The translations under genes were made by a program, and so were the position numbers. A stretch of DNA of 64,000 bases. Source: Haliotis cracherodii (lineage: Eukaryota). The DNA is taken from contig NW_027266290.1 in the NCBI RefSeq assembly GCF_022045235.1, positions 1,860,001 through 1,924,000 of the forward strand. Reading direction: 5' to 3'. The notes under the pieces are model-generated. The model had not been told where the DNA came from and searched no databases. It saw nothing but the letters and a program-made list of their open reading frames with translations. Of the stretch, positions 1-38,650 are shown one piece after another (position 1 is the first letter of the stretch; each line of letters begins with the position of its first letter).

Positions 1-659
1 ATAAGTCATGGCAACCTGTCAATGCAATAATCAAGTCTGGATGAAGAAAATCAATGACTGAAGGCATAATCCATGATCCCATCATTGCAGAAGGTACACC
101 CGCGAACATCCGGGTTAGAATAGGCCAAGGCTCGCTGACTTGGTTCATGCATGTCATCGATCTCAATTGCGTGGATGCTCATGATGTCATACGCTGGACT
201 GTCTGGTCCAGACTAGATTATTCATAGACCGCTGTGGAATATTGCTGAGTGTGGCGTTAAACAACAAACGAACAAAACATTAACTGTGTGTTGTGTGACT
301 TGTGTTTAGACTTACCGATGGAAAGATATTTGTTTTAAATAATAGGACATGATTTGACAGAAGGTTTCAGATACACAGGACCTGACTGGGAGTTGTTTGT
401 AACACGGTTACACACTAGACAATAACATTTCGCTTTGCCTACAGAACAGCCAACCCTATGTAGTTACATTGCATGTGTTACCATATTATCAATACTGCAA
501 ACGTCATGCTCATGTTTCTGTCCCTGATTATTATGGTTGCTATCGTTTTGGTGTTTTATTTGGGAGCATGACTTTCATGCGCATGATATGTTAGTGTGAA
601 CAGCATACAACTATTGTTTAGCTTTCGACTGCTCATTAAACACTTACGCAATCTCACGG

Positions 660-1340
660 TTTGCTGAAAATCAACATCTACCCACCGTGGATGTGCTCAA
701 AACAGGAAACGAAGTTTTGAAAAATCAACATCATCTCTTTGGAGACGTTATCTACAGCAGGAAACACTCATGAGTTGCCACTGGCCGGTCGTCGCCGTGT
801 GGCTTCACGTCAACAAGACAACCATATCCGGTTGGTGCATCTATGGAATCGATACCAAAGTGCCACATTAACAAAACGGACAATTTGTGGCTTGACACCA
901 ATAAGGGACAGTACCGTACGCAACCGGTTGAGCGAGCACATCGCCTGGCTTGACACTAATAAGGGACAGTACCGTACGCAACCGGTTGAGCGAGCACAAC
1001 GCCCGACTTGACACCAATTAGTGAAAGTACCGTACGCAACCGGTTGAGCGAGCACATCGCCTGGCTTGACACTAATAAGGGACAGTACCGTACGCAACCG
1101 GTTGAGCGAGCACATCGCCTGGCTTGACACTAATAAGGGACAGTACCGTACGCAACCGGTTGAGCGAGCACAACGCCCGACTTGACACCAATTAGTGACA
1201 GTACCGTACGCAACCGGTTGAGCGAGCACATCGCCTAGCTTGACACCAATTAGTGACAGTACCGTACGCAACTGGTTGAGCGAGTACAACGCCTGGCTTA
1301 ACGATGGCCCCTACCTCCAGGCACGCCAAGCTTGCTGTAG
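660..1340 (+). mobile_element. Tc1/mariner transposase N-terminal relic (duplicated at ~11480-12050)
   Basis: Translation TGNTHELP..GRPRVTSRQQDNHIRLVHL..RYQSAT..TVRNRL matches the Tc1 GRPR/HTH region. Confidence 0.75.
891..1296 (+). repeat. 58-bp minisatellite, 7 units, inside a Tc1 transposase relic
   Basis: CTTGACAC starts at 891, 949, 1007, 1065, 1123, 1181, 1239. The unit encodes TPIRDSTVRNRLSEH, a Tc1-type HTH segment. Confidence 0.95.
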
Positions 1341-2326
1341 ACATGCACACAGGAGTGGGACAGCATAATAATTGTTGAATTTACAATCCCGATTGATTAC
1401 TTTCATTGGTCACTCTAGAAATAAATTATTTTTAAACAGCAACGTTAAACAACAAACAAACAAACAACGATGTTCATGCAACATTGCTAGTTTCGACAAG
1501 ACAAACTAGTGACCACCCAATCCTTTTAGTCGCCTTTTACGACACGACGCATTAGATGCCGGATACCTATTCTAATCCGAAATATTCTTGTGGGTCATGT
1601 CATTGAGCAAAACGATATAATGTCTGTGCATTATTAAAAGCGGCGTTAAACCAAACTCACTCACTCTGTGCATTACTGAAGTGTCATCAGGACTGAAAAA
1701 AGTGACAACAAATAGGATGAGTGGACTGAATTTAACATCGCACTCAACTTATCATGGCGACCTGTAAACAATCGAGTCTGGACCTGGCGAACTGGAATCA
1801 CTAACAACGAACCATCCAATTGGGGAAGGTAATATACTAAGTCTCCAAGTATGACCACCCGATCCTGTTCGGTTGGATCTTTTGTCAAACATCTGTCGGG
1901 TGCCTAGTGGTTAAAGCGTTCGATCGTCACGCCAAAGACCCAGGTTCGATTCCCGACATGGGTACAATGTGTGAAGCCCATTCCTGGTGTCCTCCGCCGT
2001 AATATTGCTGCAATATTGCTAAAAGCGGCGTATAACCAAACTCACTCACTCACTTTGACAAACATAGGATGTTTGGCACCTTTTCGTCCCTTCACTCCCA
2101 AATTATTCGTACTAAATAGAGGTATCTGACGTTTCCAGATAATAAAAAAATTAAAGCTAAGATTGAAGTTATTAATTACAAAATGAATTTTGTCGATTTT
2201 ATTTAAACGACTCTTGCAAGTCACTAAAATTAATATTATCCATTTTTTAAGTGATGGACAACAGAAGCTGAGGTGAGGAGAAACGCGGTTCAAGGTCACG
2301 TTAACGATTATTAGTTCACGTATATA

Positions 2327-2697
2327 CCCGATCCACCCCAGTGGGGAAGGTAATCTACCCAGTCACCGAGCCTGACCACCCGATCCATCTCAGTGGGAAA
2401 GGTAATCTACCTAGTCACCGAGCCTGACTACCCGATCCATCTCAGTGGGGAAGGTAATCTACCCAGTCACCGAGCCTTACCACCCGATCCATCTCAGTGG
2501 GGAAGGTGATCTACCCAGTCACCAAGCCTGACCACCCGATCCACCCCATTGGGGAAGATAATCTACCCAGTCACCGAGCCTGACCACCCAATCCATCTCA
2601 GTGGGGAAGGTGATCTACCATGCCACTGAGCATAACCGCCAAAGCCACCCTGTCTGGGAAGGTAATCTACCAAGCCACTGAGACAAACCAACCGATC
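2327..2697 (+). repeat. 52-bp minisatellite, ~7 units, derived from SINE family A
   Basis: CCCGATCC recurs with period 52. The unit contains AGTCACCGAGCCTGACCACCCGATCC, matching the reverse strand of family A. Confidence 0.93.
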
Positions 2698-3221
2698 ATC
2701 TTTAGTAGGATCTTCAATCCCTGAGAGTTCGTAACAAATAGAGTTATGTGAGGTTTTACTGCAGACACTACATTGTTTATTTATTCAAGTTTTAACAACG
2801 AAGCAGCTGCTTACATTAAACATATTAATGATTCTGTTCTGAAAGCAAATGAAAACAGTATGTTGGGGCACTTGGTACAGTTTATGACTGTTTGCAACTG
2901 TAGTAAATATTATGTCCTTGTCTCTAAAGACTCTCGCTTACCTAATTACGTGCTTTAATGAATGTTCTATATACGCCATACACGGTGGATGAATGACATA
3001 AAACGGAGGAAGTGTAAACCAGGGACGAAGTTAATGTAGAACGTTTTCTACAGGATTGCCCAATCAATATTCTAAATGAAGCGTCTCGAGCTTCTAACTC
3101 TCGTTGGTATTACACATTCGGGAAAAGAGCAGCAACAACATTGAATTACATACCTTAAATCGACATGCCTTCATATTTTTCAGAGAGTTTCTTTGGTTTA
3201 ATGCCACCAATTTGAATAATA

Positions 3222-3389
3222 CAGTAAACTACGGTTATGACGAACACGCTTATAACAAACTGACTGATATAACGAACTTACTTTTTAGTCCCGGCCATTT
3301 GTTGTATATATTCTGTATATATGCTTATAACGAACTACGGTTATAACGAACTGAAATAAGTTTGAGTTCGTTATAACCGTAGTTTACTG
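3222..3389. mobile_element. Tc1/mariner-type MITE (TIR CAGTAAACTACGGTTAT, TA TSD, internal TTATAACGAAC repeats)
   Basis: TA|CAGTAAACTACGG..CCGTAGTTTACTG|TA. Other copies: 13960-14127, 41930-42104, ~43341-43516, 54564-54704. Confidence 0.88.
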
Positions 3390-3569
3390 TATTTCAGTTC
3401 TTTCACAGTATGTCCGTTAACGTTGCAGGAGAGCCCAAAGTGATGCAGGTTCTAGGCGTTTACCACATTTGTGGGATAAGACTACTCTCATTGTGCCATG
3501 GGACAGTTACTTCGTAGCATTAAACATCCATGACACAGTTCTAAAATAAAATCTACTTTCTCTAATCAC

Positions 3570-3834
3570 TTTGGTTGGTTTGCTGTTTTACGCCCCTCTC
3601 AGCAATATACCAGCTATATGACGGCGGTCTGTAAATAAACGAGGCTGGACCAGACAATCCAATGATTGACATCATGAACATCGATCGACGCGAATGGGAT
3701 CGATGACATGCATCAACCAAGTCAGCCAGCCTGACTAACCGATCCCGTGAGTCGCTTTTTACGACAAGCATAGTCGCCTTTAACGGGAAGCATGGGTTGC
3801 TGAAGACCTATTCTACACCGGATCTTGACGGGTC
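3570..3834 (-). mobile_element. SINE-like family A copy
   Basis: TSD TCTCTAATCAC at 3559-3569 and 3835-3845. Confidence 0.9.
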
Positions 3835-4689
3835 TCTCTAATCACGGATGGTCCTTGACCAGTCGCCTAGGATACGGCAACTTGGATACCTTGTCACGTC
3901 AGAATCCGATCATAGATGGTACGAATCCTAGAGTTTGCACCATACCCGTGCAAATGGATTTCCAGGAGCTGCGTCACTTGGGCTCTCTTCCCAAGTTGAG
4001 CTGACACGCCCTGATACAACTGAAAGACTGAAAGAAAGTTCACATAGTGTTGAACCCAAGTACCTAAGGAATTCCCACAAAGTCAGCTGTCTATACGTGT
4101 CTGAAACGCCGTGATATAAAAAGGAAAGACTGAAAGTTACTCTCAACTCACTTAACTCGCACTAAGCCACCCGCTTATACGTGTCTGACAAGCCCTGATA
4201 TAACTGAAAATTTAAAAAAATTCAATCCTAAAGATGTGTTTAGAATTTTATTTTGTATCATAGCCATACAACCCTTTGCAATTCTAAAGGACACAGTAAA
4301 ATAGTTAGAGTGGTATGTCTAACATAGCAACGAGTTTCTTAAGTTCAACAATTCAAGGATAAAAGATAAAAACGGTACTGCAAACACGGAAACGTCTATA
4401 GAATTCAAATGTCAAATACATTCTATATCAAATATAAGTGGCAACATATACGATACAGGCTCAAACAGTTCTGCATAAATAATTATAAACTGTAATGATA
4501 TCATATACACTCAAAATATGCATATGTACAGAAACGCAAAAGAAACGTCATCATGGATAGATATATGAGAACCCTTATTTGTCCAAACATACTTTGAGAC
4601 ATTTTGAAAAGATGAAACTTGGCAAAACTGATCATCAAGGTTGAAATTAAAGTGTCAAATGTACTTAAAGTGAAACACAACACTAGTCT

Positions 4690-5240
4690 CTGAGAAAATG
4701 GCATCACAAGTCAGTATCTCGTGTGTCCGCCATGTGCATTGATGACTGCCGTGCAAAATCGATACATTGAATGTATGAGTCGGTTGATGAAGGCCATAGG
4801 CACTTGAGCCGAAACTCTAAGGAACGCCTGACTCAGTTCAGCTGCAGTTGTCGGCTATGTCGGACGTCATTCGGCCATCTTTGAATCTTGTCCCACAGGT
4901 GCCCAATGGGATTTAAATCGGGACTGAGGGCAGGCCTCTGCATGGTTCTGATGTCATTCTGCTGGAGGAAGTCTCTTGTTGCTCTGGCAACGCGACGTGC
5001 CAAATGAGGTATGGCGTGTGGTCTCACGACTTGATCAATGTACCGAGCTGTTGTGACACCATCGCCTCTCCAAGGAATGACGTTCTGGAAGACCACAGGG
5101 CCGACCCTCTGTGCAAGACCAATTCCACCCCACACCATGATGCTCGGACCACCCCATGAGTCTCTCTCAATAACAGAAGCATCCGAATAACATTCCCCAT
5201 GACGTCAACCACTTCTCCTGGTCTTCATAACAATAACTTT
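4690..5240 (-). mobile_element. Tc1/mariner transposase catalytic-domain relic (duplicated at ~15430-15980)
   Basis: MVWGGI..RYIDQVVRPH..ARATRDFLQQNDIRTMQRPALSPDLNPIGHLWD; degenerate. Confidence 0.88.
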
Positions 5241-7430
5241 CGTTTGAATGTTGTAAACCAGGTAAAGTTTGTCTCTCGATGCAAACAGGCCTCTTGTCTT
5301 ATCATCAAAGACTATTCTATGAACTCAAAACACTCAAATATTATGCAAACGTATGTGCCCAAATACAAACAGCAATACATATAATCAAGATCCAAAATTC
5401 AAAAGACAATAATTACACAAATACTCTTCCAAAACTTACTCGTCTATAGAAAAGAAAATACTCATACATCAAAACGTTTGTTTCTCCGTTTGCTGTTTAA
5501 CGCTCCACTAAGCATTTCAGTAATCGACTATGGACCAGACAACCTAGTTGGCTCCATGAACATCGATCTACGCAATTGGGACACGATCACATGCATTAAC
5601 CAAGTCAGTGCGCCTCACCACCCTATTCCGTTAGTCACCTCTTACGACAAGTATGGGTTGCTGAAGGTCATTTCTAACCCAGATCTTCATCAGGTTATAT
5701 GTCATAACGATGTATGTTATCTGATAAATGCAGCGGTAGAGTCTGATGTGAAATTCTTCCTTACGGGCTCTAACGACCAATCAGACTAATTCCATTTGTC
5801 AAGCTGATTGTGGGTATCGAATGAACATAATATACCACACTGTTAATATGATCTACGTGTGTGGACTTCTTTAATGCGTTGTATCAAACACTTAAATAGA
5901 GGACTACGATTTGTTAAATGCTTCCTAGACACGGAAAATGTATATACAACCTTGTGTGTAAATATTAAGATAATTGTGCTCCAGTGCAACGTTTCCGTTT
6001 GTGGAAGGGGAGACTATGATATTGTTTCATTGACAACACAAATCGGTCACCTGACGAGGTTTTGTCTGTTATCACTATTGAATGAGACAAATGGACAGGA
6101 CATACTATAAACATTATGAAGAGGCATAAAACATTCAGTACACTAACACTGAAATATTATTAGTTAACAGTATAAAACATCAACATCAGAGAACAACAGA
6201 TTCCAAAGGCGAAACAGCAGTGCAAATTATGTGAATGGATCACTGAAAATAAGTGAAAACAGCAGGTCTCGCGGAAAGGCAAAGCATGCCCTGCTCTACC
6301 GGTAGCACCCACCACTCACACAATTTGCATAAAAAATAAATGCTGCAACATGATGTTATACTATGACAGCAGTTGAATGAATAACTGGGATATGAAGGTT
6401 AGAAATTTGATACATAAAAGTGGAATAGATATGTATGGTTAGAGCAACAGATCCCAACAATACCCAGTGTCATTTGTTAAGTCTTTTAAACAAGGATAAA
6501 CGATTAATATTCCAACGAAATATCCACATCTTTATCTTCATCTACTTTGAGTTTGATTGTTTAATATTCTGTATAATTTGTTTCTGGATGCTAATCCTTG
6601 AAAAGTTCATTGACGTTTACGATGTCCAATACACTGTTTGTATGTAAAAACTGGTATATATAAAATTTTCCCCTAAAGAGAAGAATAATGAATTTGTGAC
6701 CAATGTTATGTGTGAACTTTCACTTGTTTTATCAGTAGCTTTGAAATCTAAGATTTATTATTTTCCAAGAAATTCGCGTGTCATCTCACTTACAAGTTCA
6801 AGTTGCAACAGAGAAACTTTTGCTTTGTATCTTTGAAAACACTAAAAGCATGCTGCTTGTAAATGCCAACATGTCTTAACCACTTAAAATCATAGGGATC
6901 TTAAAATCATAATTCCTGTCTGAAATGTCATTGCATTCATTTTTAATCATCTAAATTCAAAATGTCCTCTTGCCATGCTCTGACTAGAAACACACACAGA
7001 AGACAGCGTTAAACCCAACTCACTCACTGAGTCACGACACACAAGTGCTACGTGATTGAGCACATAAACCATATAAATTGGATTAAATACCATTTTCAAC
7101 TTTTGTTGACGGGCGACTGAAAGAATAGTATAAATTCAAAACCTAACTGAACTGAAATGGAATACGGTCACTTTTACGATTGACACTGTACTTGTAACCA
7201 TGATCCAGTGACTGGCAAAACCGAATGTCACAGGGATCAAGATGAATGAAATATCTACCAAATAACATCTGATTGTTAACTTAATGGACGAAGGGTAGGG
7301 CATTATTCGAAATTTGTATTTCCTTAAAAGAGTCTATGAATTTTGTCAGTTTTACGGGGCTTGTTTGGAGTAATTTAGATTAATTTACAGTTTACAGAAT
7401 TAATTAGAGCGTTTACAGTATCAGAATTCG

Positions 7431-8051
7431 TCAGTTGCACTGGTACCTGTCAGCAGAACTTTCTGATATATTGTCCAACACATTCGGTACCAATGACAAT
7501 GTACCATTGGGCACACAACCTCCTCCAAACCCGCCGCATTTGATATGAATAACAGCCCCCTCAGCACTCCTTGACAAAGTCTGTATGGCTGATTTGTAGC
7601 CTATCAGTTTCCATTGTTGCTCGGGTGAAACAATCCATCCTGTTCCTCGCAGATCCATGGTGAATTCTCCTTTTGCCCCACAAGAACTCACATTGAAATC
7701 TTCATGTTTAGCATAACAATCTGTTGCATAGCCATACCTCGGAGGAGTTTGTGAAATGTTTGCATATGTGGTGTCGTCAACAATCACATGCATTGTGACT
7801 GGATGAACTCTTATTTTCGAGTACCATACTTCTCCATCGCGCCCTTCACAGGTGGGATACAGATTTGTTTCTCCTTGGCAAACTTGGTTACTCTTATTAG
7901 GAAAAATACCATAATTTTTATATGTGAGTGTAAGGTACTCCTTTGGGTTCCCGCTACTCATATTGTGGCAGTAGATGCGAGTTCTGTAGAAGTCGAAGTT
8001 AGGCAACCTAATCCAGGTTCTAAAGAAACCCTTTGAAGTGGTTTGCACCAT
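7431..8051 (-). pseudogene. 5'-truncated duplicate of the PAN-Sushi-GON gene (most of the GON domain only; still a 206-aa ATG-initiated ORF)
   Basis: 7431-8016 is near-identical to 18169-18754. Signal, PAN, EGF and Sushi parts are absent. Twelve unrelated codons from the ATG at 8051 are fused in frame. Confidence 0.8.
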
Positions 8052-9040
8052 ACCAATACCCCTAAACGTCGTGGAGCTTTTGTCCCTATAGACATTTTAA
8101 AAGTATTGAAAGTACAATTATACAGTAAAATGCTTTTCTCCAATTCCACAGATTGGCAAGAATTCAGTCACTCACTAACATCATCACAAAATAGAAACAA
8201 TTAACGCCAGATCCATTAGACTCCCTTTTATCTATCCATTAGAAAAGATGTTCCAGACAGGTGCAAGATGCCAATATCATTCTGCCCTGTTCTTCTGAAT
8301 GGCACTCTCCAGTTGTCACAGTTAAAAAACGTGATACCTCTTACCGATTTGACGTAGATTATAGACACCTTAATACAGTTACCAAGCCAAAAGTTTTCCC
8401 TCTACCACATTTTGAAGATGTCGTTGATGCTGTAGGCGACAGCCATCCCACAAATCTTAGTGTCCTTTAGTGTGCTAGTGGCTTTTGTCAAATACTCTCC
8501 ATCAAGACACAAAACACAAGTCGGCCTTCATTACATCTGATGGTGTTTTTGAATGGAATCTCCTCCCTTTCGAACTCAAAAATGCTCATTTGTGCAAACC
8601 GTTTTAGAAGCACTAACAGAAAGGAATTTGCGTTACATACTAATATATGTGGATGACATCATAACGTTTTTGGAACATTTGAATTATCTCAAAGCAGTAT
8701 TCTAAAAGATCAAAGAAGCAGGACTCACTAAAAAACCAATCAAATGTAATTTCGCGACAAAACAAGTCACCTACTTCGGTAGTATTTAGCATAGATGGCA
8801 TCCATCTTTATCATTCGAAATTAGATTCAGTCACACAAGTCCCGTCCCCTAAAAATGTCCATGATGTGCGTCATTACTTTGGTTTGGCCTCGTTTTATCA
8901 CAAATTTGCACCAAACCTTTCTGGCAATGCCCTCCCTCTTTACAACCTTCTGAAAAAGGACGCGTGTTTTGATTGGTCCAACAATTGCCAACAGGCATTC
9001 GAAAGGCTAAAAGAGACAACATACTGACAACCTGTATTAC
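8017..9040 (+). mobile_element. Ty3/Gypsy pol (RT) relic, with frameshifts and stops
   Basis: IILPCSSEWHSPVVTVKKRDTSYRFDVDYRHLN..FPLPHFED, HKSAFIT..FEWN..PF, LIYVDDII. Confidence 0.9.
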
Positions 9041-9460
9041 CATTTGTCTTTCATGATGACAACGCCCGAGTTCACCGTGCACGGATCGTCAGTGCTCACC
9101 TCCAGCAGCTCAACATCCATAGAATGCCATAGCTAGCAGTGAGCGCAGGCATTTTCCCCAGTGAACACGTCTGGTACATGATCGGGAGACTTGTACATCA
9201 ACGTCATAGGCCGCCGACCACGTTGGCTAAACTTGGCAAGGAACGACAACATTGGCGGAACAGACACATACAAATCCCCATTTGGAGACTCATATGCAGT
9301 ATTCCATATCGAGTGAATGAATGTTTGACAAATCGTGGCGTGTTACCATAACAGACAAAAACATTGAAATTTCCAATCTTACTCCTACTGTCCTTCAAGA
9401 TCGTTTGTGGTCCAAACTTCTGTCATTCTTCACTACCAGTTGTAATGTAGTCCCAATAAG
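9040..9460 (+). mobile_element. Tc1 transposase C-terminal relic
   Basis: FHDDNARVHRARIV..LNIHRMP..PSEHVW..IGR. Confidence 0.8.
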
Positions 9461-9599
9461 TTCATTTCTATCATACCACTATTACCAGAAACAATTTTGG
9501 AAAATGTAAGTATATATATCCGAGTATACCTTACTTTTGATGACCATGATTTGTCAAAAGATGAGCAGTGAAAACATTTCAACATAGATTGTCTGTATG

Positions 9600-10441
9600 G
9601 AACAAACAATCAACATTATTAGCATCAAGTGAGAACATTTTCACATTTGTAAAACGGGAATATCACACAATTTGGTGCTTTAGTTCCAAAACATTGATCA
9701 ATGTGTTGACCGTGTAGGATATAACGGCAAGAGGGGTCCCTTTCTTTTTTTGTAGTTGTCGATGGATTCGCACTCTCGCTCTTAGGGTATCTCCTGTCTG
9801 TCCAGTCTATTTGGCTTTGCATCCAGCAAGCACATTGTATGACATAAATCAAGTTTTTGGAAGCACAAATCATATTTTCACGGACATAGAAAGTTTTTTT
9901 CCGTCATTGAATGTACAAGAACAACATTGAAAAACATGAGGACAAGTACCACAATTAGGTCTGTTACACTTTTGTACTGTTTTACATTCTCAATTTCCTT
10001 GAGAGAAAGAAGCCCTAGAAAGAATCTGTCAAAATTACGGCTGTGTCTTTTTTTTTTTAATAAGTTTATTTTCTGACATTTTTTGTGTACGTTCTTTACA
10101 CTCATTTAGAGTATCTCCCGAACATTTCCAAATATTTCCGGGTTTGGGGAATTAAAGGCTGTAACAAAAGGGAGAACACTCTCGTTAGGTATATCTTTAG
10201 GTTCTACAAGATCACAACGGTTTGTGATTTAGCATTGTTTATTGCGCATTCTACCATTTTTCTAGGGTAGTTTCTTTCTAGTAGTAAATCCCTCAGTTCT
10301 CTGAGTCTACATTGTGCTCGATCTGAATTAGATACTTCGGCGCAGATTCTACATGCTAATGTGTAAGGGACATTGATTTCTGTGTGATGGGATGGACAGG
10401 GATTGTAATGAGGTTTTGTTTGTAACCGGTTGGTTTGTAAT
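9600..10441 (-). mobile_element. Penelope-like retroelement relic (RT C-terminus + GIY-YIG endonuclease)
   Basis: YKPT..VPYTLACRI..RELRDLLLERNYP followed by CASKNLIYVIQCA.C, the PLE GIY-YIG signature. Confidence 0.8.
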
Positions 10442-11709
10442 CAATCTCTTTAAAATCAGATCTTAGTTCTCGCTACCACTAAACAAAGATCTGAGGACAT
10501 CCCATTACCGGTCACTTCAGACCGAGCTTGCACGAACTTTGACCGACCAATGAAATGACTGACAGGAAGTCCACATTAGCCAGTCAGAAGGCAGCTTTCT
10601 CGTGCTTTATGGCACTAATTTTAAATTGGCGACTACGCTTCGAAACACATCATGACAAATGCTCCATAAAAAAATGAAACCTGAACATAAAAGCATTCTG
10701 GAATGGCTAATAGATGGTCTAGATTGTATGGATTCAGTCGTTAAGCCCGTAACTTGGATTCAGTCGTTAAGCCCGTAATTTAAATGAGACTAGTTTGTTA
10801 TATACATCTGTTTCTATGTCAGTATATGTCATGGCAACCTGTCAACAATCAAGTCTGGATGAAGAAAATCAATGACTGAAGGCATAATCCATGATCCCAT
10901 CATTGCAGAAGGTACACCCGCGAACATCCGGGTTAGAATAGGCCAAGGCTCGCTGACTTGGTTCATGCATGTCATCGATCTCAATTGCGTGGATGCTCAT
11001 GATGTCATACGCTGGACTGTCTGGTCCAGACTAGATTATTCACAGACCGCTGTGGAATATTGCTGAGTGTGGCGTTAAACAACAAACGAACAAAACATTA
11101 ACTGTGTGTTGTGTGACTTGTGTTTAGACTTACCGATGGAAAGATATTTGTTTTAAATAATAGCACATGATTTGACATAAGGTTTCAGATACACAGGACC
11201 TGACTGGGAGTTGTTTTGTAACATGGTTACACACTAGACAATAACATTTAGCTTTGCCTACAGAACAGCCAACCCTATGTTGCTACATTGCATGTGTTAC
11301 CATATTATCAATAATGCAAACGTCATGCTCATGTTTCTGTCCCTGATTATTATGGTTGCTATCGTTTTGGTGTTTTATTTGGGAGCATGACTTTCATGCG
11401 CATGATATGTTAGTGTGAACAGCATACAACTATTGTTTAGCTTTCGACTGCTCATTAAACACTTACGCAATCTCACGGTTTGCTGAAAATCAACATCTAC
11501 CCACCGTGGATGTGCTCAAAACAGGAAACGAAGTTTTGAAAAATCAACATCATCTCTTTGGAGACGTTATCTACAGCAGGAAACACTCATGAGTTGCCAC
11601 TGGCCGGTCGTCCCCGTGTGACTTCTCGTCAACAAGACAACCATATCCGGTTGGTGCATCTATTCAATCGATACCAAAGTGCCACATTAACAAAACGGAC
11701 AATTTGTGG

Positions 11710-11999
11710 CTTGACACCAATAAGGGACAGTACCGTACGCAACCGGTTGAGCGAGCACATCGCCTGGCTTGACACCAATAAGGGACAGTACCGTACGCAA
11801 CCGGTTGAGCGAGCACATCGCCTGGCTTGACACTAATAAGGGACAGTACCGTACGCAACCGGTTGAGCGAGCACAACGCCCGACTTGACACCAATTAGTG
11901 ACAGTACCGTACGCAACCGGTTGAGCGAGCACATCGCCTAGCTTGACACCAATTAGTGACAGTACCGTACACAACTGGTTGAGCGAGTACAACGCCTGG
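11710..11999 (+). repeat. 58-bp minisatellite, 5 units (duplicate copy)
   Basis: Units start at 11710, 11768, 11826, 11884, 11942. Confidence 0.95.
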
Positions 12000-13040
12000 C
12001 TTAACGTCCAGCGATACGCCCAACATGGCCCCTACCTCCAGGCACGCCAAGACATGCACACAGGAGTGGGACAGTATAATAATTGTTGAATTTACAATCC
12101 CGATTGATTACTTTCATTGGTCACTCTAGAAATAAATTATTTTTAAACAGCAACGTTAAACAACAAACAAACAAACAACGATGTTCATGCAACATTGCTA
12201 GTTTCGACAAGACAAACCAGTGACCACCCAATCCTTTTAGTCGCCTTTTACAACACGATGCATTAGATGCCGGATACCTATTCTAATCCGAAATCTTCTT
12301 GTGGGTCATGTCATTGAGCAGAACGATATAATGTCTGTGCATTATTAAAAGCGGCGTTAAACCAAACTTACTCACTCACTAACTCTGTGCATTACTGAAG
12401 TGTCATCAGGACTGAAAAAAGTGACAACAAATAGGATGAGTGGACTGAATTTGACATCGCACTCAACTTATCATGGCGACCTGTAAACAATCGAGTCTGG
12501 ACCTGGCGAACTGGAATCACTAACAACGAACCATCCAATTGGGAAAGGTAATATACTAAGTCTCCAAGTATGACCACCCGATCCTGTTCGGTTGGATCTT
12601 TTGTCAAACATGGGTCGGGTGCCTAGTGGTTAAAGCATTCGATCGTCACGCCAAAGACCCAGGTTCGATTCCCGACATGGGTACAATGTGTGAAGCCCAT
12701 TCCTGGTGTCCTCCGCCGTAATATTGCTGCAATATTGCTAAAAGCGGCGTATAACCAAACTCACTCACTTTGACAAACATAGGATATTTGGCACCTTTTC
12801 GTCCCTTCACTCCCAAATTATTCGTACTAAATAGAGGTATCTGACGTTTCCAGATAATAAAAAAAAATTAAAGCTAAGATTGAAGTTATTAATTACAAAA
12901 TGAATTTTGTCGATTTTATTTAAACGACTCTTGTAAGTCACTAAAATTAATATTATCCATTTTTTAAGTGATGGACAGAAGCTGAGGTGAGGAGAAACGC
13001 GGTTCAAGGTCGCGTTAACGATTATTAGTACACGTATATA

Positions 13041-13465
13041 CCCGATCCACCCCAGTGGGGAAGGTAATCTACCCAGTCACCGAGCCTGACCACCCGATCC
13101 ATCTTAGTGGGGAAGGTAATCTACCCAGTCACCGAGCCTGACCACACGATCCATCTCAGTGGGGAAGGTAATCTACCCAGTCACCGAGCCTGACTACCTG
13201 ATCCATCTCAGTGGGGAAGGTAATCTACCCAGTCACCAAGCCTGACCACCCGATCCATCTCCGTGGGGAAGGTGATCTACCCAGTCACCGAGCCTGACCA
13301 CCCGATCCACCCCATTGGGGAAGATAATCTACCCAGTCACCGAGCCTGACCACCCAATCCATCTCAGTGGGGAAGGTGATCTACCATGCCACTGAGCATA
13401 ACCGCCAAAGCCACCCTGTCTGGGAAGGTAATCTACCAAGCCACTGAGACAAACCAACCGATCAT
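13041..13465 (+). repeat. 52-bp minisatellite, ~8 units (duplicate copy)
   Basis: Period-52 units from 13041 to 13457. Confidence 0.93.
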
Positions 13466-16400
13466 CTTTAGTAGGATCTTGAGGTTTTACTGCAGACACT
13501 ACATTGTTTATTTATTCAAGTTTTAACAACGAAGCAGCTGCTTACGTTAAACATATTAATGCATCTGTTCTGAAAGCAAATGAAAACGGTATGTTGGGGC
13601 ACTTGGTACCGTTTATGACTGTTTGCAACTGTAGTAAATATTATGTCCTTGTCTCTAAAGACTCTCGCTTACCTAATTACGTGCTTTAATGAATGTTCTA
13701 TATACGCCATACACGGTGGATGAATGACATAAAACGGAGGAAGTGTAAACTAGGGACGAAGTTAATGTAGAACGTTTTCTACGGGATTGCCCAATCGCTA
13801 TTCTAAATGAAATATGAAGCGTCTCGAGCTTCTAACTCTCGTTGTTATTACACATTCGGGAAAGGAGGAGCAACAACATTGAATTACATACCTTAAATCG
13901 ACATGCCTTCATATTTTTCAGAGCGTTTCTTCGGTGTAATGCCACCGATTTGAATAATACAGTAAACTACGGTTATGACGAACACGCTTATAACGAACTG
14001 ACTGATATAACGAACTTACTTTTTAGTCCCGGACATTTGTTGTATATATTCTGTATATATGCTTATAACGAACTACGGTTATAACGAACTGAAATAAGTT
14101 TGAGTTCGTTATAACCGTAGTTTACTGTATTTCAGTTCTTTCACAGTATGTCCGTTAACGTTGGAGGAGGGCCCAAAGTGATGCAGGTTCCAGGCTTTTA
14201 CCACATTTGTGGGATAAGACTACTCTCATTGTGCCATGGGACAATTACTTCGTAGCATTAAACATCCATGACACAGTTTTAAAATAAAATCTACTTTCTC
14301 TAATCACTTTGGTTGGTTTGCTGTTTTACGCCCCTCTCAGCAATATTCCAGCTATATGACGGCGGTCTGTAAATAAACGAGGCTGGACCAGACAATCCAA
14401 TGATTGACATCATGAACATCGATCCACGCAATTGGGATCGATGATATGCATCAACCAAGTTAGCAAGCCTGACCACCCAATTCCGTTAGTTGTTTTTTTA
14501 CGACAAGCATAGTCGCCTTTAACGGGAAGCATGGGTTGCTGAAGACCTATTCTACACCGATCTTGACGGGTCTCTCTAATCACGGATGGTCCTTGACCAG
14601 TCGCCTAGGATACGGCAACTTGGATACCTTGTCACGTCAGAATCCGATCATATATGGTACGAATCCTAGAGTTTGCACCATACCCGTGCAAATGGATTTC
14701 CAGGAGCTGCGTCACTTGGGCTCTCTTCCCAAGTTGAGCTGACACGCCCTGATACAACTGAAAGACTGAAAGAAAGTTCACATGGTGTTGGACCCAAGTA
14801 CCTAAGGAATTCCCACAAAGTCAGCTGTCTATACGTGTCTGAAACGCCGTGATATAAAAAGGAAAGACTGAAAGTTACTCTCAACTCACTTAACTCGCAC
14901 TAAGCCACCCGCTTATACGTGTCTGACAAGCCCTGATATAACTGAAAATTTAAAAAAATTCAATCCTAAAGATGTGTTTAGAATTTTATTTTGTATCATA
15001 GCCATACAACCCTTTGCAATTCTAAAGGACACAGTAAAATAGTTAGAGTGGTATGTCTAACATAGCAACGAGTTTCTTAAGTTCAACAATTCAAGGATAA
15101 AAGATAAAAACGGTACTGCAAACACGGAAACGTCTATAGAATTCAAATGTCAAATACATTCTATATCAAATATAAGTGGCAACATATACGATACAGGCTC
15201 AAACAGTTCTGCATAAATAATTATAAACTGTAATGATATCATATACACTCAAAATATGCATATGTACAGAAACGCAAAAGAAACGTCATCATGGATAGAT
15301 ATATGAGAACCCTTATTTGTCCAAACATACTTTGAGACATTTTGAAAAGATGAAACTTGGCAAAACTGATCATCAAGGTTGAAATTAAAGTGTCAAATGT
15401 ACTTAAAGTGAAACACAACACTAGTCTCTGAGAAAATGGCATCACAAGTCAGTATCTCGTGTGTCCGCCATGTGCATTGATGACTGCCGTGCAAAATCGA
15501 TACATTGAATGTATGAGTCGGTTGATGAAGGCCATAGGCACTTGAGCCCAAACTCTAAGGAACGCCTGACTCAGTTCAGCTGCAGTTGTCGGCTATGTCG
15601 GACGTCATTCGGCCATCTTTGAATCTTGTCCCACAGGTGCCCAATGGGATTTAAATCGGGACTGAGGGCAGGCCTCTGCATGGTTCTGATGTCATTCTGC
15701 TGGAGGAAGTCTCTTGTTGCTCTGGCAACGCGACGTGCCAAATGAGGTATGGCGTGTGGTCTCACGACTTGATCAATGTACTGAGCTGTTGTGACACCAT
15801 CGCCTCTCCAAGGAATGACGTTCTGGAAGACCACAGGGCCGACCCTCTGTGCAAGACCAATTCCACCCCACACCATGATGCTCGGACCACCCCATGAGTC
15901 TCTCTCAATAACAGAAGCATCCGAATAACATTCCCCATGACGTCAACCACTTCTCCTGGTCTTCATAACAATAACTTTCGTTTGAATGTTGTAAACCAGG
16001 TAAAGTTTGTCTCTCGATGCAAACAGGCCTCTTGTCTTATCATCAAAGACTATTCTATGAACTCAAAACACTCAAATATTATGCAAACGTATGTGCCCAA
16101 ATACAAACAGCAATACATATAATCAAGATCCAAAATTCAAAAGACAATAATTACACAAATACTCTTCCAAAACTTACTCGTCTATAGAAAAGAAAATACT
16201 CATACATCAAAACGTTTGTTTCTCCGTTTGCTGTTTAACGCTCCACTAAGCATCTCAGTAATCGACTATGGACCAGACAACCTAGTTGGCTCCATGAACA
16301 TCGATCTACGCAATTGGGACACGATCACATGCATTAACCAAGTCAGTGCGCCTCACCACCCTATTCCGTTAGTCACCTCTTACGACAAGTATGGGTTGCT

Positions 16401-18168
16401 GAAGGTCATTTCTAACCCAGATCTTCATCAGGTTATATGTCATAACGATGTATGTTATCTGATAAATGCAGCGGTAGAGTCTGATGTGAAATTCTTCCTT
16501 ACGGGCTCTAACGACCAATCAGACTAATTCCATTTGTCAAGCTGATTGTGGGTATCGAATGAACATAATATACCACACTGTTAATATGATCTACGTGTGT
16601 GGACTTCTTTAATGCGTTGTATCAAACACTTAAATAGAGGACTACGATTTGTTAAATGCTTCCTAGACACGTAAAATGTATATACAACCTTGTGTGTAAA
16701 TATTAAGATAATTGTGCTCCAGTGCAACGTTTCCGTTTGTGGAAGGGGAGACTATGATATTGTTTCATTGACAACACAAATCGGTCACCTGACGAGGTTT
16801 TGTCTGTTATCACTATTGAATGAGACAAATGGACAGGACATACTATAAACATTATGAAGAGGCATAAAACATTCAGTACACTAACACTGAAATATTATTA
16901 GTTAACAGTATAAAACATCAACATCAGAGAACAACAGATTCCAAAGGCGAAACAGCAGTGCAAATTATGTGAATGGATCACTGAAAATAAGTGAAAACAG
17001 CAGGTCTCGCGGAAATGCAAAGCATGCCCTGCTCTACCGGTAGCACCCACCACTCACACAATTTGCATAAAAAATAAATGCTGCAACATGATGTTATACT
17101 ATGACAGCAGTTGAATGAATAACTGGGATATGAAGGTTAGAAATTTGATACATAAAAGTGGAATAGATATGTATGGTTAGAGCAACAGATCCCAACAATA
17201 CCCAGTGTCATTTGTTAAGTCTTTTAAACAAGGATAAACGATTAATATTCCAACGAAATATCCACATCTTTATCTTCATCTACTTTGAGTTTGATTGTTT
17301 AATATTCTGTATAATTTGTTTCTGGATGCTAATCCTTGAAAAGTTCATTGACGTTTTCGATGTCCAATACACTGTTTGTATGTAAAAACTGGTATATATA
17401 AAATTTTCCCCTAAAGAGAAGAATAATGAATTTGTGACCAATGTTATGTGTGAACTTTCACTTGTTTTATCAGTAGCTTTGAAATCTAAGATTTATTATT
17501 TTCCAAGAAATTCGCGTGTCATCTCACATACAAGTTCAAGTTGCAACAGAGAAACTTTTGCTTTGTATCTTTGAAAACACTAAAAGCATGCTGCTTGTAA
17601 ATGCCAACATGTCTTAACCACTTAAAATCATAGGGATCTTAAAATCATAATTCCTGTCTGAAATGTCATTGCATTCATTTTTAATCATCTAAATTCAAAA
17701 TGTCCTCTTGCCATGCTCTGACTAGAAACACACACAGAAGACAGCGTTAAACCCAACTCACTCACTGAGTCACGACACACAAGTGCTACGTGATTGAGCA
17801 CATAAACCATATAAATTGGATTAAATACCATTTTCAACTTTTGTTGACGGGCGACTGAAAGAATAGTATAAATTCAAAACCTAACTGAACTGAAATGGAA
17901 TACGGTCACTTTTACGATTGACACTGTACTTGTAACCATGATCCAGTGACTGGCAAAACCGAATGTCACAGGGATCAAGATGAATGAAATATCTACCAAA
18001 TAACATCTGATTGTTAACTTAATGGACGAAGGGTAGGGCATTATTCGAAATTTGTATTTCCTTAAAAGAGTCTATGAATTTTGTCAGTTTTACGGGGCTT
18101 GTTTGGAGTAATTTAGATTAATTTACAGTTTACAGAATTAATTAGAGCGTTTACAGTATCAGAATTCG

Positions 18169-19419
18169 TCAGTTGCACTGGTACCTGTCAGCAGAACTTT
18201 CTGATATATTGTCCAACACATTCGGTACCAATGACAATGTACCATTGGGCACACAACCTCCTCCAAACCCGCCGCATTTGATATGAATAACAGCCCCCTC
18301 AGCACTCCTTGACAAAGTCTGTATGGCTGATTTGTAGCCTATCAGTTTCCATTGTTGCTCGGGTGAAACAATCCATCCTGTTCCTCGCAGATCCATGGTG
18401 AATTCTCCTTTAGCCCCACAAGATCTCACATTGAAATCTTCATGTTCAGCATAACAATCTGTTGCATAGCCATACCTCGGAGGAGTTTGTGAAATGTTTG
18501 CATACGTGGTGTCGTCAACAATCACATGCATTGTGACTGGATGAACTCTTATTTTCGAGTACCATACTTCTCCATCGCGCCCTTCACAGGTGGGATACAG
18601 ACTTGTTTCTCCTTGGCAAACTTGGTTACTTTTATTAGGAAAAATACCATAATTTTTATATGTGAGTGTAAGGTACTCCTTTGGGTTCCCGCTACTCATA
18701 TTGTGGCAGTAGACGCGAGTTCTGTAGAAGTCGAAGTTAGGCAACCTAATCCAGTATTCCCCATCTCCACTGGTCGGCCCACACCGCTTCACCTCACGAC
18801 ATGAGGATGGTACGGCTAAACGGCAATCTGTGAATGACCAATTACCACTCAGTCCACATGATGCACTGGCTTCCGGGTAGAAATCTGATTCACACACATA
18901 CTTGACAGTAGTTCCTATAGGAAGTTCACGAGCAGAAACCGTGGTGTTCAAGACGGCATTGGGAATGGCATCGAGATGAGACGTTAAACAACCAGACACC
19001 TCACAAACAGGTTCTCCTGCTGGAATGCAAATGGTATTGAGAGGGCACACATGGTTGGTACACATGGCAGCAAGTCGCTGTGGCCAGTGTTGAATGTCAG
19101 AGAAGAGAAAGCTTGATATACTTTCCATGTTTGCGTCTGTGCTGTCAGATGACTTATAGTTCAGATCACACTGATTTTGTCCCTCATTATAGTTGAATGA
19201 CTCACAATACTTTTTCCCAAGACAGTAGCGTGCACAGACCATCAGTCCACTGGCGTTAGTGGACAGGATTTGAGCATTTGCCATTTTAACTCCTCTTTTC
19301 ACAGAGGGTACATTCTCAGTGCACATTTTCTCTGCAGCTACTGTAAGGTCCAAGAAGTTAAGCCTGTGCAATACAACAAGGCAAACTGCCCAGACATAAT
19401 TGCCCGTTTGATTCCTCAT
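18169..19419 (-). CDS. Secreted PAN/Apple + EGF-like + Sushi/CCP + GON domain protein (416 aa from the ATG at 19419; ORF is open to 19491), single coding exon
   Basis: Signal-like N-terminus MRNQTGNYVWAVCLVVLHRLNFLDLTVAA. PAN pattern CARYCLGKKYCESFNY..QCDLN. Small EGF-like CTNHVCPLNTICIP..VC. Sushi C..IPNA..GTTVKYVCESDF..SCGLSGNWS..C. C-terminal ~200 aa has ADAMTS9/20/GON-1 GON hallmarks: PSSCREVK, DGEY, VYCHNM..PKEYLTL, YSKIRV, YGYATDCY, GEFTMDLRGTG, CGGFGGGCVP. Confidence 0.88.
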   Translation of the reverse strand: MRNQTGNYVWAVCLVVLHRLNFLDLTVAAEKMCTENVPSVKRGVKMANAQILSTNASGLMVCARYCLGKKYCESFNYNEGQNQCDLNYKSSDSTDANMESISSFLFSDIQHWPQRLAAMCTNHVCPLNTICIPAGEPVCEVSGCLTSHLDAIPNAVLNTTVSARELPIGTTVKYVCESDFYPEASASCGLSGNWSFTDCRLAVPSSCREVKRCGPTSGDGEYWIRLPNFDFYRTRVYCHNMSSGNPKEYLTLTYKNYGIFPNKSNQVCQGETSLYPTCEGRDGEVWYSKIRVHPVTMHVIVDDTTYANISQTPPRYGYATDCYAEHEDFNVRSCGAKGEFTMDLRGTGWIVSPEQQWKLIGYKSAIQTLSRSAEGAVIHIKCGGFGGGCVPNGTLSLVPNVLDNISESSADRYQCN

Positions 19420-20566
19420 GTCTACTCCGGAAAAATTCAGAACCGACCAGGTAAGTATAAATGGTCCTTCAAATACACGATACTTATACACATGTGAGCA
19501 AATGTTAAAAGCACCTACTACACCCGACCGGAAAGGCTGGATAGGCCTGGTAAATAGTTAAGCCAGCCAATACAGTCAATACAATGCAATTCAACCTTAC
19601 ACATACACATGTGCTTACATTTAATTATTGATGCATTGTTCAATGTGTAAATAAATAATCGTTTAATAATAATGTTTTCTTTCATTGTCTTGAGAAGCAA
19701 CTGCCATGGCGACACCATAACGTGGACGTCACCGATGCTCCATAGAAAGCATTACCCAGCAGCCCTACTTGCAATGACCCCCGAGAGGACTCCAGGTTAG
19801 AACTGGCTGGTCGTCACAGCCGACAAAACAAAAGATTTCAAAGGGAATATGATTTTAGATTGCCCATTCGACATTCCAATTGTATTTGCAATGACCCCCG
19901 AGAGGATTCCAAGAGTTATCTATTCTTATCAAGTGTTCCCTTCATTGGCAGAACGCTGAGATATGTTTGGACAAAATAGATTATGTACGAGATAATGTCT
20001 GACGATATTCAACAACTGAGTCAACAAGGATACAACTGAAGGCATATTTAGATATTAAGAATGCCAACCAGGCGGCGGCCATTTTGATACGACAAGCTCA
20101 CACGACGCAGCTGATGCCTCTGTATTGAGAGGTGGCACTTCGTGATCGATCGTGTAATTGTACCTGAAGCTAGGTCCGGAAAACGTGATTACAACTAACT
20201 GCTAGCGTATTAAAATACTGAGTAAGAGACTGCATTAAAGAGTGTATAGTCAATGAGGGACATACCCCTCCCCATAGTAGAACAAAGCAAACTTAGATTT
20301 TCCTTATGTTTTTGTATCCAGCAGACTAAAAAATGATGGTTGTGATCAAATGTATTGGTGGCAGATACTGTTTGTGGGTCGAAATGCACTTTGTTTTTGG
20401 TAAAATAGAGTCCCCCCAAAAGCTGGTGTGTGCATTGAGTCCTCATTTGTATCATTTATGTGATTGCTTAGACATAGTAGACATGACACTGTGTAATTAG
20501 TTAAAATATGAGGAACACATATACTTATACCTTCATCAATTAATGCTATAAAGCAGAGAACATTTT

Positions 20567-22281: not shown

Positions 22282-23654
22282 TCATAAGAGAAAGTTGCTT
22301 AAACCATAAAACGCATACGGTTCGGTATGACTAGACTGTTAAAAGTAACAACAAATGAATATGACTGAGATATAACCGAGAAATATCTTTACTCATGGCA
22401 TAAAAGCAATATTGTGTTCATGTAGCCATGGTGCATTCCAAACACATTTCTGCAATTCTTCACGGCAGAGGTAATTCAAAATAAACATGTATGATTTTAG
22501 TTTCCGCAAATAGCAGTAAATACAATAGCGTGTAATTGGATTTTCTGTCTGGTCCATTGCTTGATTCTCTGGGGGTTTTTAAAGACAACCGTCGCATGGC
22601 AACATACAAAGATAAATGTTCATGCAAATTGTGTGAGTGGCAAGTGTTACCGGTACGGCAGGACATGTTTACCCTTTTCGCTGATTTTCAATGATCTATT
22701 CATATAATTTTCACAGCTGTTTTGCTGTTACTCCCAATGGAATCTGTATTGGCGGATAATTGAGACTGGTTGTTCTCTGGTGTTGACGTTTATAACTTTA
22801 AAAAAATGGTCTGTTTTCTGCTGCAATACTGAATTTTAAGGGTCGTGTCTATAAGATGTTACCACATTTAAAGACTCTAATAATGTGTAATGGTATGAAA
22901 TAGGTTTTAAACATACCAGATGTAAACATGCTTTGTATTTGTGTCTTTGTGTGTTTTAACTCAACACGTTAAGGACATGTAACACATGTCAGTGGCTCAA
23001 TATGAACATTCTTTGAACATAACATGTTCATGAAAAGTGAGGAATATAGTTGTTTGTGTCATTCTTTAGTAACCCCCTACCGCTCGCAAGTAAATACGAG
23101 GTACGTCTACATATATCTACTGCCGCAACAATCGTTATATCAAGAGGCTAGAAGAGCTAGAAGAGAAATGTTCATAGTTGTGCGATGTCCAAGCGAAACA
23201 CAAGTTCTTGATTATTCACTTTGCTTTGATAAATACAGTCGAGCAAGGATTGTGGAATGTACTTATTGAACGGACATTTTAAAGCTTCAATAACGTAATT
23301 CCACTGAGCTGAGATAATCGAAACAGGGTATTCTCTGTTATTTATTTGTAAGTGAATCGGGAAAGGCAGTTGCACACTTGTAATTGTGATCTTGAAGAAC
23401 ATTGTGAAACGTGATATTCTTATGGTGATATCTGGTATTAAATTCAAAGAAGACAGCTTTCTCAACATTGCTGACACATGTTGCGATGTTCAAGAACTTG
23501 GATTGAGTTTGGATTGAGCCCCCAAGAAGTGTCCTCAAACTCTGCTTGAGCATTCGTCCTCCTGCAACACCTGGATGACCTGACAAGGCAGCTACAATGG
23601 TCCCACCTGTAGAAGATGTTTCAAGCAACACATAGTCAGAGTCATGTTTCAGAC

Positions 23655-24000
23655 TCCGTGGTCTAGTGGTAGAGCGTCCGCCCGGAGAGCGGAAGGTCCA
23701 GGGTTCGATCCCGGGCCGCGTCATACAAAAAGACGTTAAAAGATTGTACTTGTTGTTACCCTGTCTGGCGATCGGCATTAAGGGGCTAAAACAAGGACTG
23801 GTCGGCTCGGAGTCAGTATACTGTGTCTGAGTGGGGTATTCATGTTAAACTGCGGCATGGTATCTCAGTGGGCTAGCACTATAAATCGGCATCAGTCCGG
23901 ACTAGTACAAGCAGCCACACAAACACATACACGTGCATGCACGTCGCTATATAAGTGCAATAATCTTGGACGCGACGTTAAACCCAATTTCACCTCACCC
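23655..24000 (+). mobile_element. tRNA-derived SINE, family C (body resembles molluscan MetaSINEs)
   Basis: A/B boxes, TSD CATGTTTCAGAC (23643-23654 / 24001-24012), GCGACGTTAAAC + (TCACC)n tail. Superfamily assignment is from recalled consensus, not a search. Confidence 0.85.
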
Positions 24001-36488: not shown

Positions 36489-38650
36489 ATGTCGGTCGTA
36501 AAGATCCCGGACGCTGGCGGAGACAACATCACTCTCCTGGAGGTGGAGGATCATCTGTACCCCAATTCTCCCATTGATTCCCCCGCTGACGTCATCAAAG
36601 GCATCCGCGACCTCCCCATCAGAGAGGATGACGTCTTTGTCTGCGCATATCCTAAATGTGGTGAGCAGTAGAGAAGTAACTTCTATTTTTCCTTTGCTAA
36701 GATTTCTTTAAGGTGCAGAATATTGTACTAGTACTTCAACTATTTTCTTCTCCGATAGGAGCAGCCAAACATTTTTGTGTGTGGATATTTCTGTGTTGAG
36801 AACATCCAGTAAATCCAATGAACATTTCTTTGTATGTGTAAAACCTGGAGGCTTTAGTAACGTTATGATGTGACGTACAATTATTTATAGCCATTTCACT
36901 AAACGTAACAAACAGAAACAAATTTTGGGAAACGACCATTTGATATTCTGAGCGTGGAGGCCTGAGGTTGTATTAATAAACATAAATTGTCCCTGAAAAT
37001 TCTTGAAAAAAATAAGTACGCTTCAAATAATTGAAAAACAAATAAATTGCAAGCCACAAAAAAATCATTGTTGCAAGGCGTTTTTTCTAAAATAAAAATT
37101 CAGGCTCATAGTTTTAAATTAGAAAATATCTGGTTTTTGTAGCTGGAGCTGAAAAAAAATCTTACCTCGACACAACCCCTGCTTCAGATTGCCTGATTAT
37201 TCAGATTATTTGATCACATTGTATTTTTGTATATATGTATGCTATTATGTTGCTCATATACCACCGGTCGGCGGTTTGAGTTAATAAAGAACTTGAACTT
37301 GAGCCTACCCCGCCTCGCTTTGAACTGATCTCTCTCTGTTGTGATATTCCAGGCACTCACTGGGTGTGGGAAATGGCCCGCCTCCTTCTGTCGAGCGACA
37401 CAGAGACTGTTATAGAGAAGGATGAATTGATGTTAGAGTTCATCGGAAATGACGTCTTAGAGAAGTTCCCGTCCCCGCGAATTTTAAACACGCATTGCTT
37501 TGTTGAGCAGCTGCCACGTGGTGTGTTTGAGAAGAAGTGTAAAATAATCTACATTCTTCGAAACCCCAAGGACATGGCAGTGTCGTTGTTCCACCACCAC
37601 AAGAAACTGAAATGCTATGAATATGATGGGAAATTTGAAAATCATGTTTCATTACTGCTGGATGGGAAAGGTTAGAGCTATTTAGAGTGAGTGAGTGGGT
37701 GAATGTTGATTTATGTCGTAAAAAGCTCATTTCCAGATAGGCAAACTACTGACTGAGAGTACTGAGATATTTTATCCTTGAACGCAGGTTGTTAAGATTA
37801 ATCTTAACTAAGATCCTTCGAAGATCTAGACCTCGGTCACCATAACACACTGTCAAGCCATACTATGTAACATTAATACGACTGTTTCCTCGTTTGTTTA
37901 TTTGCTGTTCAACGCCGCACTCAGCAATTTTCCAGCTATATGACGGCGATCTGTAACTAATTGATTCTGGACCAGACAATCCAGTGATTGACATCATGAG
38001 CATCGATCCACACAATTGGATACGATGACATGCATCAACCAAGTCAGCGAGCCTGACCACCCGATCCCGTTAGTCGCCTCTGACGACAAGCATAGTCGCC
38101 TTTTACGGTAAGCATAGGTTGCCGAAGACCTATTCTACCCCGGATCTTCACGGGTCTAGTCACGTTTAATGAAAGCAGCAGGAAGGAATTACGACTGGTG
38201 AAAAACCACAATGCTGGGTTGATATAGTTGTTGAGAACATGCAAATGTATCACCTAAGCGAATTTGAGTAAGCGAATGGGTCCAGTGTGGTTCTCAAAAT
38301 AGAATCGAGATAACATACAACAGATTATAAAAACTAGGTTGCACAAACCTCTTATATAACACTCTCCACAATTCAGTTGACTTCGGGTCGTTTTTCACAT
38401 ACCTGAAGGACTGGGCTGCCATTGGGACAACCCATCCCGACTTGCCGACCTTGACCTTGGTGTATGAAGATCTAAAAGAGGTAACAGTTAACTGCACGTG
38501 GCCACGCGCTCTATTTGTATAGCATAGTGCAAAGTCCTTTGGGGCTTATGTGGTGTATGGGCAATGCATTGCGTCTTTTCACATGAAACATCAAGTGAAA
38601 TTCCCAGCGTTTATGTTTTCGCAACACTGATGAGAGCGAGACAGTACAAA

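Follow-up and report, generated by a model that had tools for sequence, protein, structure and literature searches.

The gene and its domain architecture

The window, which is the whole 64,000-nucleotide stretch of Haliotis cracherodii DNA that was analyzed, carries on its minus strand a complete open reading frame of 416 amino acids without introns (P0001), which starts with an ATG at 19419 and whose stop codon ends at 18169; the plus-strand frame across the same interval contains many stops. An earlier note made from the sequence alone had placed one uninterrupted reading frame at this interval, and this was confirmed. The features of the gene and of the array to which it belongs are as follows.

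18169..19419, minus strand: complete intron-free reading frame, 416 amino acids (P0001), last of seven tandem copies by contig position
19333..19419, minus strand: predicted signal peptide, residues 1 to ~29 (hydropathy and model helix; putative cleavage near VAA/EK)
19102..19293, minus strand: PAN/Apple domain, residues 43-106 (Pfam PF00024; Foldseek)
19003..19062, minus strand: four-cysteine truncated EGF-like linker, C120/C125/C131/C139 (no EGF family above cut-off)
18823..18990, minus strand: Sushi/CCP domain, residues 144-199 (Pfam PF00084; CR1 and factor B matches)
18229..18807, minus strand: GON domain, residues 205-397 (Pfam PF08685; beta-rich domain after about residue 250)
18673..18816, minus strand: predicted fibrinogen/COLFI-type N-terminal subdomain, first 48 GON residues (VIA-align superposition on the model; profile match)
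18253..18276, minus strand: CGGFGGGC motif, residues 382-389, without the middle Cys of the family (the clade has C278 in the 257-287 loop)
18172..18228, minus strand: C-terminal tail ending in Cys415 (from the sequence; no ER-retention motif)
7431..8016, minus strand: 5'-truncated tandem copy, codons 223-416, 98% identical, without leader, PAN, Sushi, and the start of GON
1..18754, no strand: tandem duplication with a unit of ~10.7 kb (1007-8016 versus 11710-18754 at 96.8%)

The Pfam GON profile (PF08685) matches residues 205-397 of P0001 over profile positions 2-195 of 199 (E 4.9e-32, 111.9 bits against a cut-off of 22.6), which makes the protein a member of this family, as the earlier note had expected of its C-terminal region. 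PAN_1 (PF00024) was found at residues 43-106 (E 5.7e-9) and Sushi (PF00084) at residues 152-195 (E 1.1e-4, 23 bits against a cut-off of 20.7); Foldseek relates the PAN region in structure to HGF NK1, factor XI, and other proteins with PAN/apple domains. The Sushi region matches CR1 and factor B. In the module order that had been read previously (signal peptide, PAN, EGF-like, Sushi, GON), these three domains therefore stand above their Pfam cut-offs, but the EGF-like module does not, as it has four cysteines rather than six and its best Pfam EGF match reaches only E 0.055 (13.7 bits against 27). The four cysteines of this half-EGF (C120, C125, C131, and C139) are invariant across 10 aligned paralogue front ends. 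Neither reprolysin nor TSP1 matched P0001 at E up to 10 in Pfam, and its sequence contains no HExxH motif, in agreement with the former description of a protein lacking metalloprotease and TSP1 modules; collagen, TSP1, and low-complexity matrix regions were likewise absent from P0001. The AlphaFold2 model, built on an alignment of 97 sequences, has a mean pLDDT of 92.3. Taken as a whole, P0001 is an intact member of a large molluscan PAN-halfEGF-Sushi-GON family.

The N-terminal leader has its best nine-residue hydropathy at residue 9 (3.09, with at most 1.09 further on) and forms a helix in the model (residues 5-28, low pLDDT), and no later hydrophobic or membrane segment and no KDEL was found in P0001, which contains 24 Cys and nine N-glycosylation sequons, one of them inside the leader. 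A signal peptide and secretion are thus plausible, judged by hydropathy, sequons, and the absence of a later membrane segment. Residue 19 of the leader is Arg in the window copy and Gly in two sister copies. Upstream of the ATG, a TATA-like box (~70 nt, minus strand) and a strong splice-donor-like site on the plus strand (19445-19460, ~30 nt) were also observed.

The terminal motif was rightly read in the earlier note as CGGFGGGC. Among 132 GON sequences (partial GON domains and duplicates left out), 115 have the middle Cys of CGGxCG, and 13 of the 17 without it, including all of the clade of P0001, have two Cys in the 257-287 loop. In these proteins a local C268-C278 bond may have taken the place of C268-C386; the association is not strict, as 15 other sequences have two loop Cys and retain the middle one. 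C213 and the tail Cys occur together in 70 of the sequences, are both missing in 41, and are discordant in 21, counts that are not corrected for relatedness; a disulfide between C213 and C415 is predicted for P0001.

Relatives, intron loss, and the tandem array

The nearest proteins are those of H. rufescens (P0002, 95% identical, named 'ADAMTS20-like'), H. asinina (P0003, 72%), and H. rubra (P0004, 51%), all of which, labeled ADAMTS20-like or ADAMTS9-like, have the same architecture as P0001. A full HMMER search gave 571 matches at E up to 0.001. GON was present in 94 of the 96 relatives scanned (93 of the 150 listed representative matches plus the three nearest proteins) and TSP1 or reprolysin in just four, with some of the scanned proteins perhaps being fragments; a further 13 of the 150 representatives were scanned separately, two of them being in both sets. 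The named relatives (n = 30) come from Haliotis, Patella, Lottia, Gigantopelta, Ruditapes, cuttlefish, amphioxus, and jellyfish, and relatives belonging to the P0001 family occur in limpets (Patella, Lottia), a vent snail (Gigantopelta), clam, and cuttlefish. The front end of P0001 also matches a mainly molluscan PAN/Sushi cluster of 87 members (score 0.95). The H. cracherodii genome itself has 94 matches to the GON profile, 58 of which start within the first four profile positions by hand count; as short genomic matches may be fibrinogen-type subdomains, 'dozens of loci' is the safe statement. These paralogues are diverged (~30% identity). The many paralogues, the distribution in molluscs, and the per-module exons described below bear out the earlier view of a domain-shuffled, lineage-expanded, protease-free GON family.

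Introns at positions corresponding to P0001 residues 115 (phase 0), 201-203 (phase 1), 296 (phase 0), and 355 (phase 0) were present in all four mapped paralogues (in the one called C22d, the intron position after the EGF exon was read from the junction peptide). A paralogue on C7 with the same four modules has an extra intron at 143 (phase 1), its Sushi exon being a phase 1-1 cassette, and the C22a paralogue has one at 404 (phase 1). In an intron-bearing paralogue every module lies on its own exon or exons, and the window gene lacks all six positions. In an IQ-TREE analysis of 48 of the 132 GON domains, the C27 genes (the contig of the window) and the C17 paralogue form a clade (100/96) that is sister to C22-type proteins (97/90), in a group including C22a (95/96), so that the window gene is nested in an intron-bearing clade whose loci lie on different contigs. 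A single origin of all GON-intronless genes was rejected (p-AU 5e-5) in a test in which three C10 genes are intronless within GON only. For both the nesting and this test, intron status was shown for genes of the H. cracherodii genome and assumed for P0003 and P0004.

Because its paralogues carry up to six conserved introns while the window gene has none and is nested in their clade, it is likely to be a retrocopy that was later tandem-duplicated. The event would be old, as suggested by a dS of ~2.6 to the C17 paralogue, and the 330 nt downstream of the reading frame show no poly(A) tract. The nearest intron-bearing relatives (C22) have no Sushi exon and the exact parent gene was not found, implying that either Sushi was lost there or the parent is gone. 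For the family, the simplest reading is that retroposition occurred at least twice. On C3, C8, C14, C16, and C45 (L013, L014, L019-L030, and L065-L067), an older, second group of PAN-Sushi(n)-GON genes, each with a single exon, was also observed; their GON heads have diverged strongly, and some of the genes stand in tandem arrays of their own.

Contig C27 contains seven copies at a spacing of ~10.5 kb, of which three are intact, one has a frameshift and a stop, and three are 5'-truncated. The truncated copies have a common 5' junction, and as the sequence preceding it is found again ~0.8 kb upstream of the frameshifted copy, a single deletion of ~1.5 kb that was copied afterwards is indicated; the truncated copy in the window is likely non-functional. 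An assembly artefact was ruled out, since ~1-4% of codon sites differ between the copies and their lesions are not the same. With four of the seven copies broken, the array would best be read as the product of birth-and-death evolution. Within the tandem unit, minisatellites of 58 bp and 52 bp (888-1299, 2326-2701, 11707-12002, and 13040-13467) differ in copy number between units and are possible substrates of unequal crossing-over, and both units have a remnant of a DDE_3 (Tc1/mariner-type) transposase (4833-5138 and 15571-15876, minus strand). The second copy at 7431-8016, the intron loss, the tandem array, and the fibrinogen link treated below had been missed in the earlier note.

The dN/dS between P0001 and the C17 paralogue (53% identical) is ~0.16, with dS close to saturation. 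For the three intact copies, dN/dS ranges from 0.41 to 0.94 on 13-21 differences per pair, values that are uninformative and cannot be told from neutral; a search for positive selection among these copies gave no sign of it. None of the eight indels in run X11 falls within the reading frame. The gene is real and constrained. In runs X1-X4, coding coverage equals flanking coverage at low depth and no splice joints occur at the gene, so these runs are uninformative on expression.

The GON stem and its exchangeable heads

The model of GON alone has a pLDDT of 97.4. Its residues 1-48 superpose in VIA-align on L-/M-ficolin and intelectin-1 with an rmsd of 1.5-1.9 Å over 44-45 residues (Z 3.7-4.1), or, with the procollagen C-propeptide added, 1.5-2.3 Å over 44-47 residues (Z 3.6-4.1). 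Profile searches agree with this, with matches to the collagen C-propeptide (E 3e-6) as well as MFAP4 and intelectin and a further match to NF040941 (E 1e-4) below the cut-off, and Atlas neighbours carry COLFI or Fibrinogen_C. The likeness to ficolin covers 48 of the 215 model residues at Z ~4: tight alignments to ficolin/FReD proteins end near residue 48, and longer ones have an rmsd above 4 Å. The remaining ~165 residues gave no clear PDB match, the whole domain gave no fold match in Foldseek (best E 0.02) or the wide VIA search (best Z 3.0), a result that is no proof of a new fold, and Fibrinogen_C (PF00147) did not match P0001 at E up to 10. GON is predicted to consist of a stem subdomain of the ficolin/collagen-propeptide type with another kind of beta domain on it, and, as far as tested, would share the stem of the FReDs but not their head. 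The sugar-binding part of ficolins, at what we take to be its location, falls outside the structural alignments, so that its binding chemistry is not transferable to GON. No description of a fibrinogen link of GON was found in the literature searched, which omits most subscription journals; in domain databases, GON may already be placed with the fibrinogen domains.

In Ruditapes, homologous front ends are followed by Fibrinogen_C, GON, or kringle heads. A GON-headed and a FReD-headed protein of this clam share 72% identity in their first 143 residues and show no relation by BLAST beyond that point, and P0001 aligns with a FReD-headed protein through PAN, half-EGF, and Sushi into the stem (28% over 180 residues, E 4e-19). 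Another relative has a C-type lectin head; the amphioxus proteins combine GON with C-type lectin, F5/8, SUEL, Link, VWA, or trypsin domains. A Patella vulgata model (P0068) combines a VERL_C egg-coat domain, Sushi repeats, and GON, and is either real or an annotation fusion.

Candidate functions and comparison with known systems

It is proposed that the intron-free PAN-halfEGF-Sushi-GON gene arose by retrocopying first and tandem duplication later, and that its product is a secreted, non-enzymatic binding or recognition protein in which GON would be the exchangeable head. The PAN-halfEGF-Sushi part may be a spacer or docking frame presenting this head, and the variable GON loops at ~268-281 and ~352-371 may contact the ligand; met in mucus, gut, or haemolymph, this ligand could be either a surface of microbial or food-borne origin or an extracellular partner from the host itself. 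We give this reading an even chance of being right: it draws on the architecture, the gene history, and the head swap, takes the fold as predicted, and extends from there to secretion, a ligand, and an immune role. If recognition is indeed the function, an expanded gene family would be added to gastropod immunity; otherwise, this is an ordinary lineage-specific secreted family. A wider and doubtful proposal places GON as sister to the fibrinogen-related and collagen-propeptide domains, with a recognition head of yet unsolved fold on the same stem subdomain, and has molluscs expanding it, through shuffled exons, repeated retroposition, and turnover in tandem arrays, into an unrecognised pattern-recognition family paralleling the FReDs of bivalves; the GON of ADAMTS9/20 would in that case be a ligand-binding head.

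Alternatively, P0001 might be secreted and have a structural or adaptor role in an extracellular matrix (mucus, shell matrix, or egg coat), where its COLFI-like subdomain would serve assembly and not the recognition of non-self. The stem is also common to collagen C-propeptides and MFAP4, the protein is disulfide-rich with its nine sequons, the limpet model joins Sushi-GON to an egg-coat domain, and a table in PMC4224354 counts GON as an ECM domain. Such a role is nevertheless unlikely, given the absence from P0001 of collagen, TSP1, and low-complexity matrix regions; in the main text of one paper on a lophotrochozoan shell proteome, GON is not mentioned. The head swap in clam and the ficolin-type subdomain would favor recognition over matrix, and rapid copy turnover and replacement by FReD heads are more typical of recognition families.

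A function inside the cell, as a helper of ER-to-Golgi export amplified for highly secretory cells, is quite improbable. A cuttlefish Sushi-GON protein presumably comes from a secretory gland, and the combination of a signal peptide with a C-terminal GON resembles constructs of GON-1 and ADAMTS9 that rescued secretion in worm and human cells (PMC3338439, PMC4517882). The only tested function of GON lies inside the ER (PMC3338439), and its role in secretion was extended by PMC4517882. However, the genome retains its own ADAMTS GON gene, a housekeeping role would not call for dozens of divergent paralogues at ~30% identity, and P0001 has no retention signal and adds a Cys tail to a C-terminus that, according to PMC3338439, is important for ER localisation.

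It is about as improbable that the array is a decaying, largely redundant set of retrocopies in which the window copy is silent or neutral. The four broken copies, a dN/dS among the young ones that cannot be told from neutral, and the weaker leader of the window copy agree with such decay, but the open frame is retained in H. rufescens (95%) and H. asinina (72%), and both the dN/dS of 0.16 against C17 and the avoidance of the frame by indels in run X11 argue for constraint.

The upstream surroundings consist of repeats and plus-strand exons of cytosolic-type sulfotransferases, forming at least two tandem genes (37280-37672, 50544-50945, and 53806-54156; PF00685 E 3e-20 and 4e-21). A weak tRNA match (23652-23723, plus strand, 29.9 bits) opens a repeat of very high copy number and is likely the head of a tRNA-derived SINE, and ~8.9-9.3 kb past the end of the window an exon (L076, minus strand) reads by eye like the large subunit of replication protein A. 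A GON gene of several exons lies on contig C56, preceded by many TSP1 exons (its protease exons were not located), with introns at ~236, 301, 338, and 374 in P0001 numbering plus one unmapped, unlike those of the PAN-Sushi-GON family. None of at least 76 genomic TSP1 matches (150 of 343 candidates scored), many of which adjoin the GON exons on C56, and none of at least five reprolysin matches (an exon-wise search of low sensitivity) lies on C27. The reading of the window gene as a terminal exon of ADAMTS9/20, which the 'ADAMTS9/20-like' names given by NCBI to the orthologues would imply, is thus largely refuted and hardly credible: the gene has its own ATG and leader, C27 has no TSP1 or reprolysin match within these lower bounds, the upstream neighbours are sulfotransferase exons on the opposite strand, and the TSP1-bearing GON gene is on C56. 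Splicing onto upstream ADAMTS exons, named in the earlier note as the outcome that would overturn its reading, is accordingly unsupported on genomic evidence.

Protease-free GON proteins were known before, being already mentioned in PMC3338439, whose Table S1 of GON architectures may already hold PAN-halfEGF-Sushi-GON; as an orthologue was also annotated, P0001 is a modest addition, and how surprising it is had been overstated in the earlier note. The literature searched, which omits most subscription journals, contains no description of this molluscan family or of its retroposition; the GON-domain papers listed included none on molluscs, judged by title or abstract start, ADAMTS/gon-1 in the abalone literature came down to a mention in a clam GWAS, and the cephalopod salivary papers searched contain no passage on GON. 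The label 'ADAMTS9/20-like' stands on many molluscan proteins that are not proteases, a point to bear in mind when abalone and clam transcriptomes are read. Single-exon GON proteins with models at pLDDT 97 and many natural variants offer an easy route to the structure and ligand of GON, and results from abalone proteins would bear on human ADAMTS9/20.

Compared with known systems, the ADAMTS-like proteins of Haliotis and the limpet 'GON domain-containing proteins' are automatic annotations, and the ADAMTS name is misleading. Cuttlefish GON-Sep-2 (UniRef100_R4FJA6, P0174), which we take to come from the posterior salivary gland study of Ruder et al. (2013), has, like P0001, a leader, Sushi, GON, and Cys tail and no protease (33% identical over 214 residues, E 3e-35), but it lacks PAN and half-EGF, retains CGGHCG, and falls in a different clade (placed via its cluster representative). 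The 'ficolin-2-like' P0184 and other FReD proteins of Ruditapes share with P0001 a homologous front end, and ficolins and intelectins have the same first 48-residue subdomain as its model; unlike ficolins, intelectins, and PAN-Sushi-FReD proteins, however, P0001 has ~165 further residues that do not align, no Fibrinogen_C match, and no collagen stalk. With ADAMTS9, ADAMTS20, and GON-1, P0001 shares the C-terminal GON domain and probable entry into the secretory pathway, whereas it lacks their prodomain, metalloprotease, TSP1 repeats, and middle Cys of CGGxCG, and has instead a PAN-halfEGF-Sushi front, a Cys tail, and another intron history.
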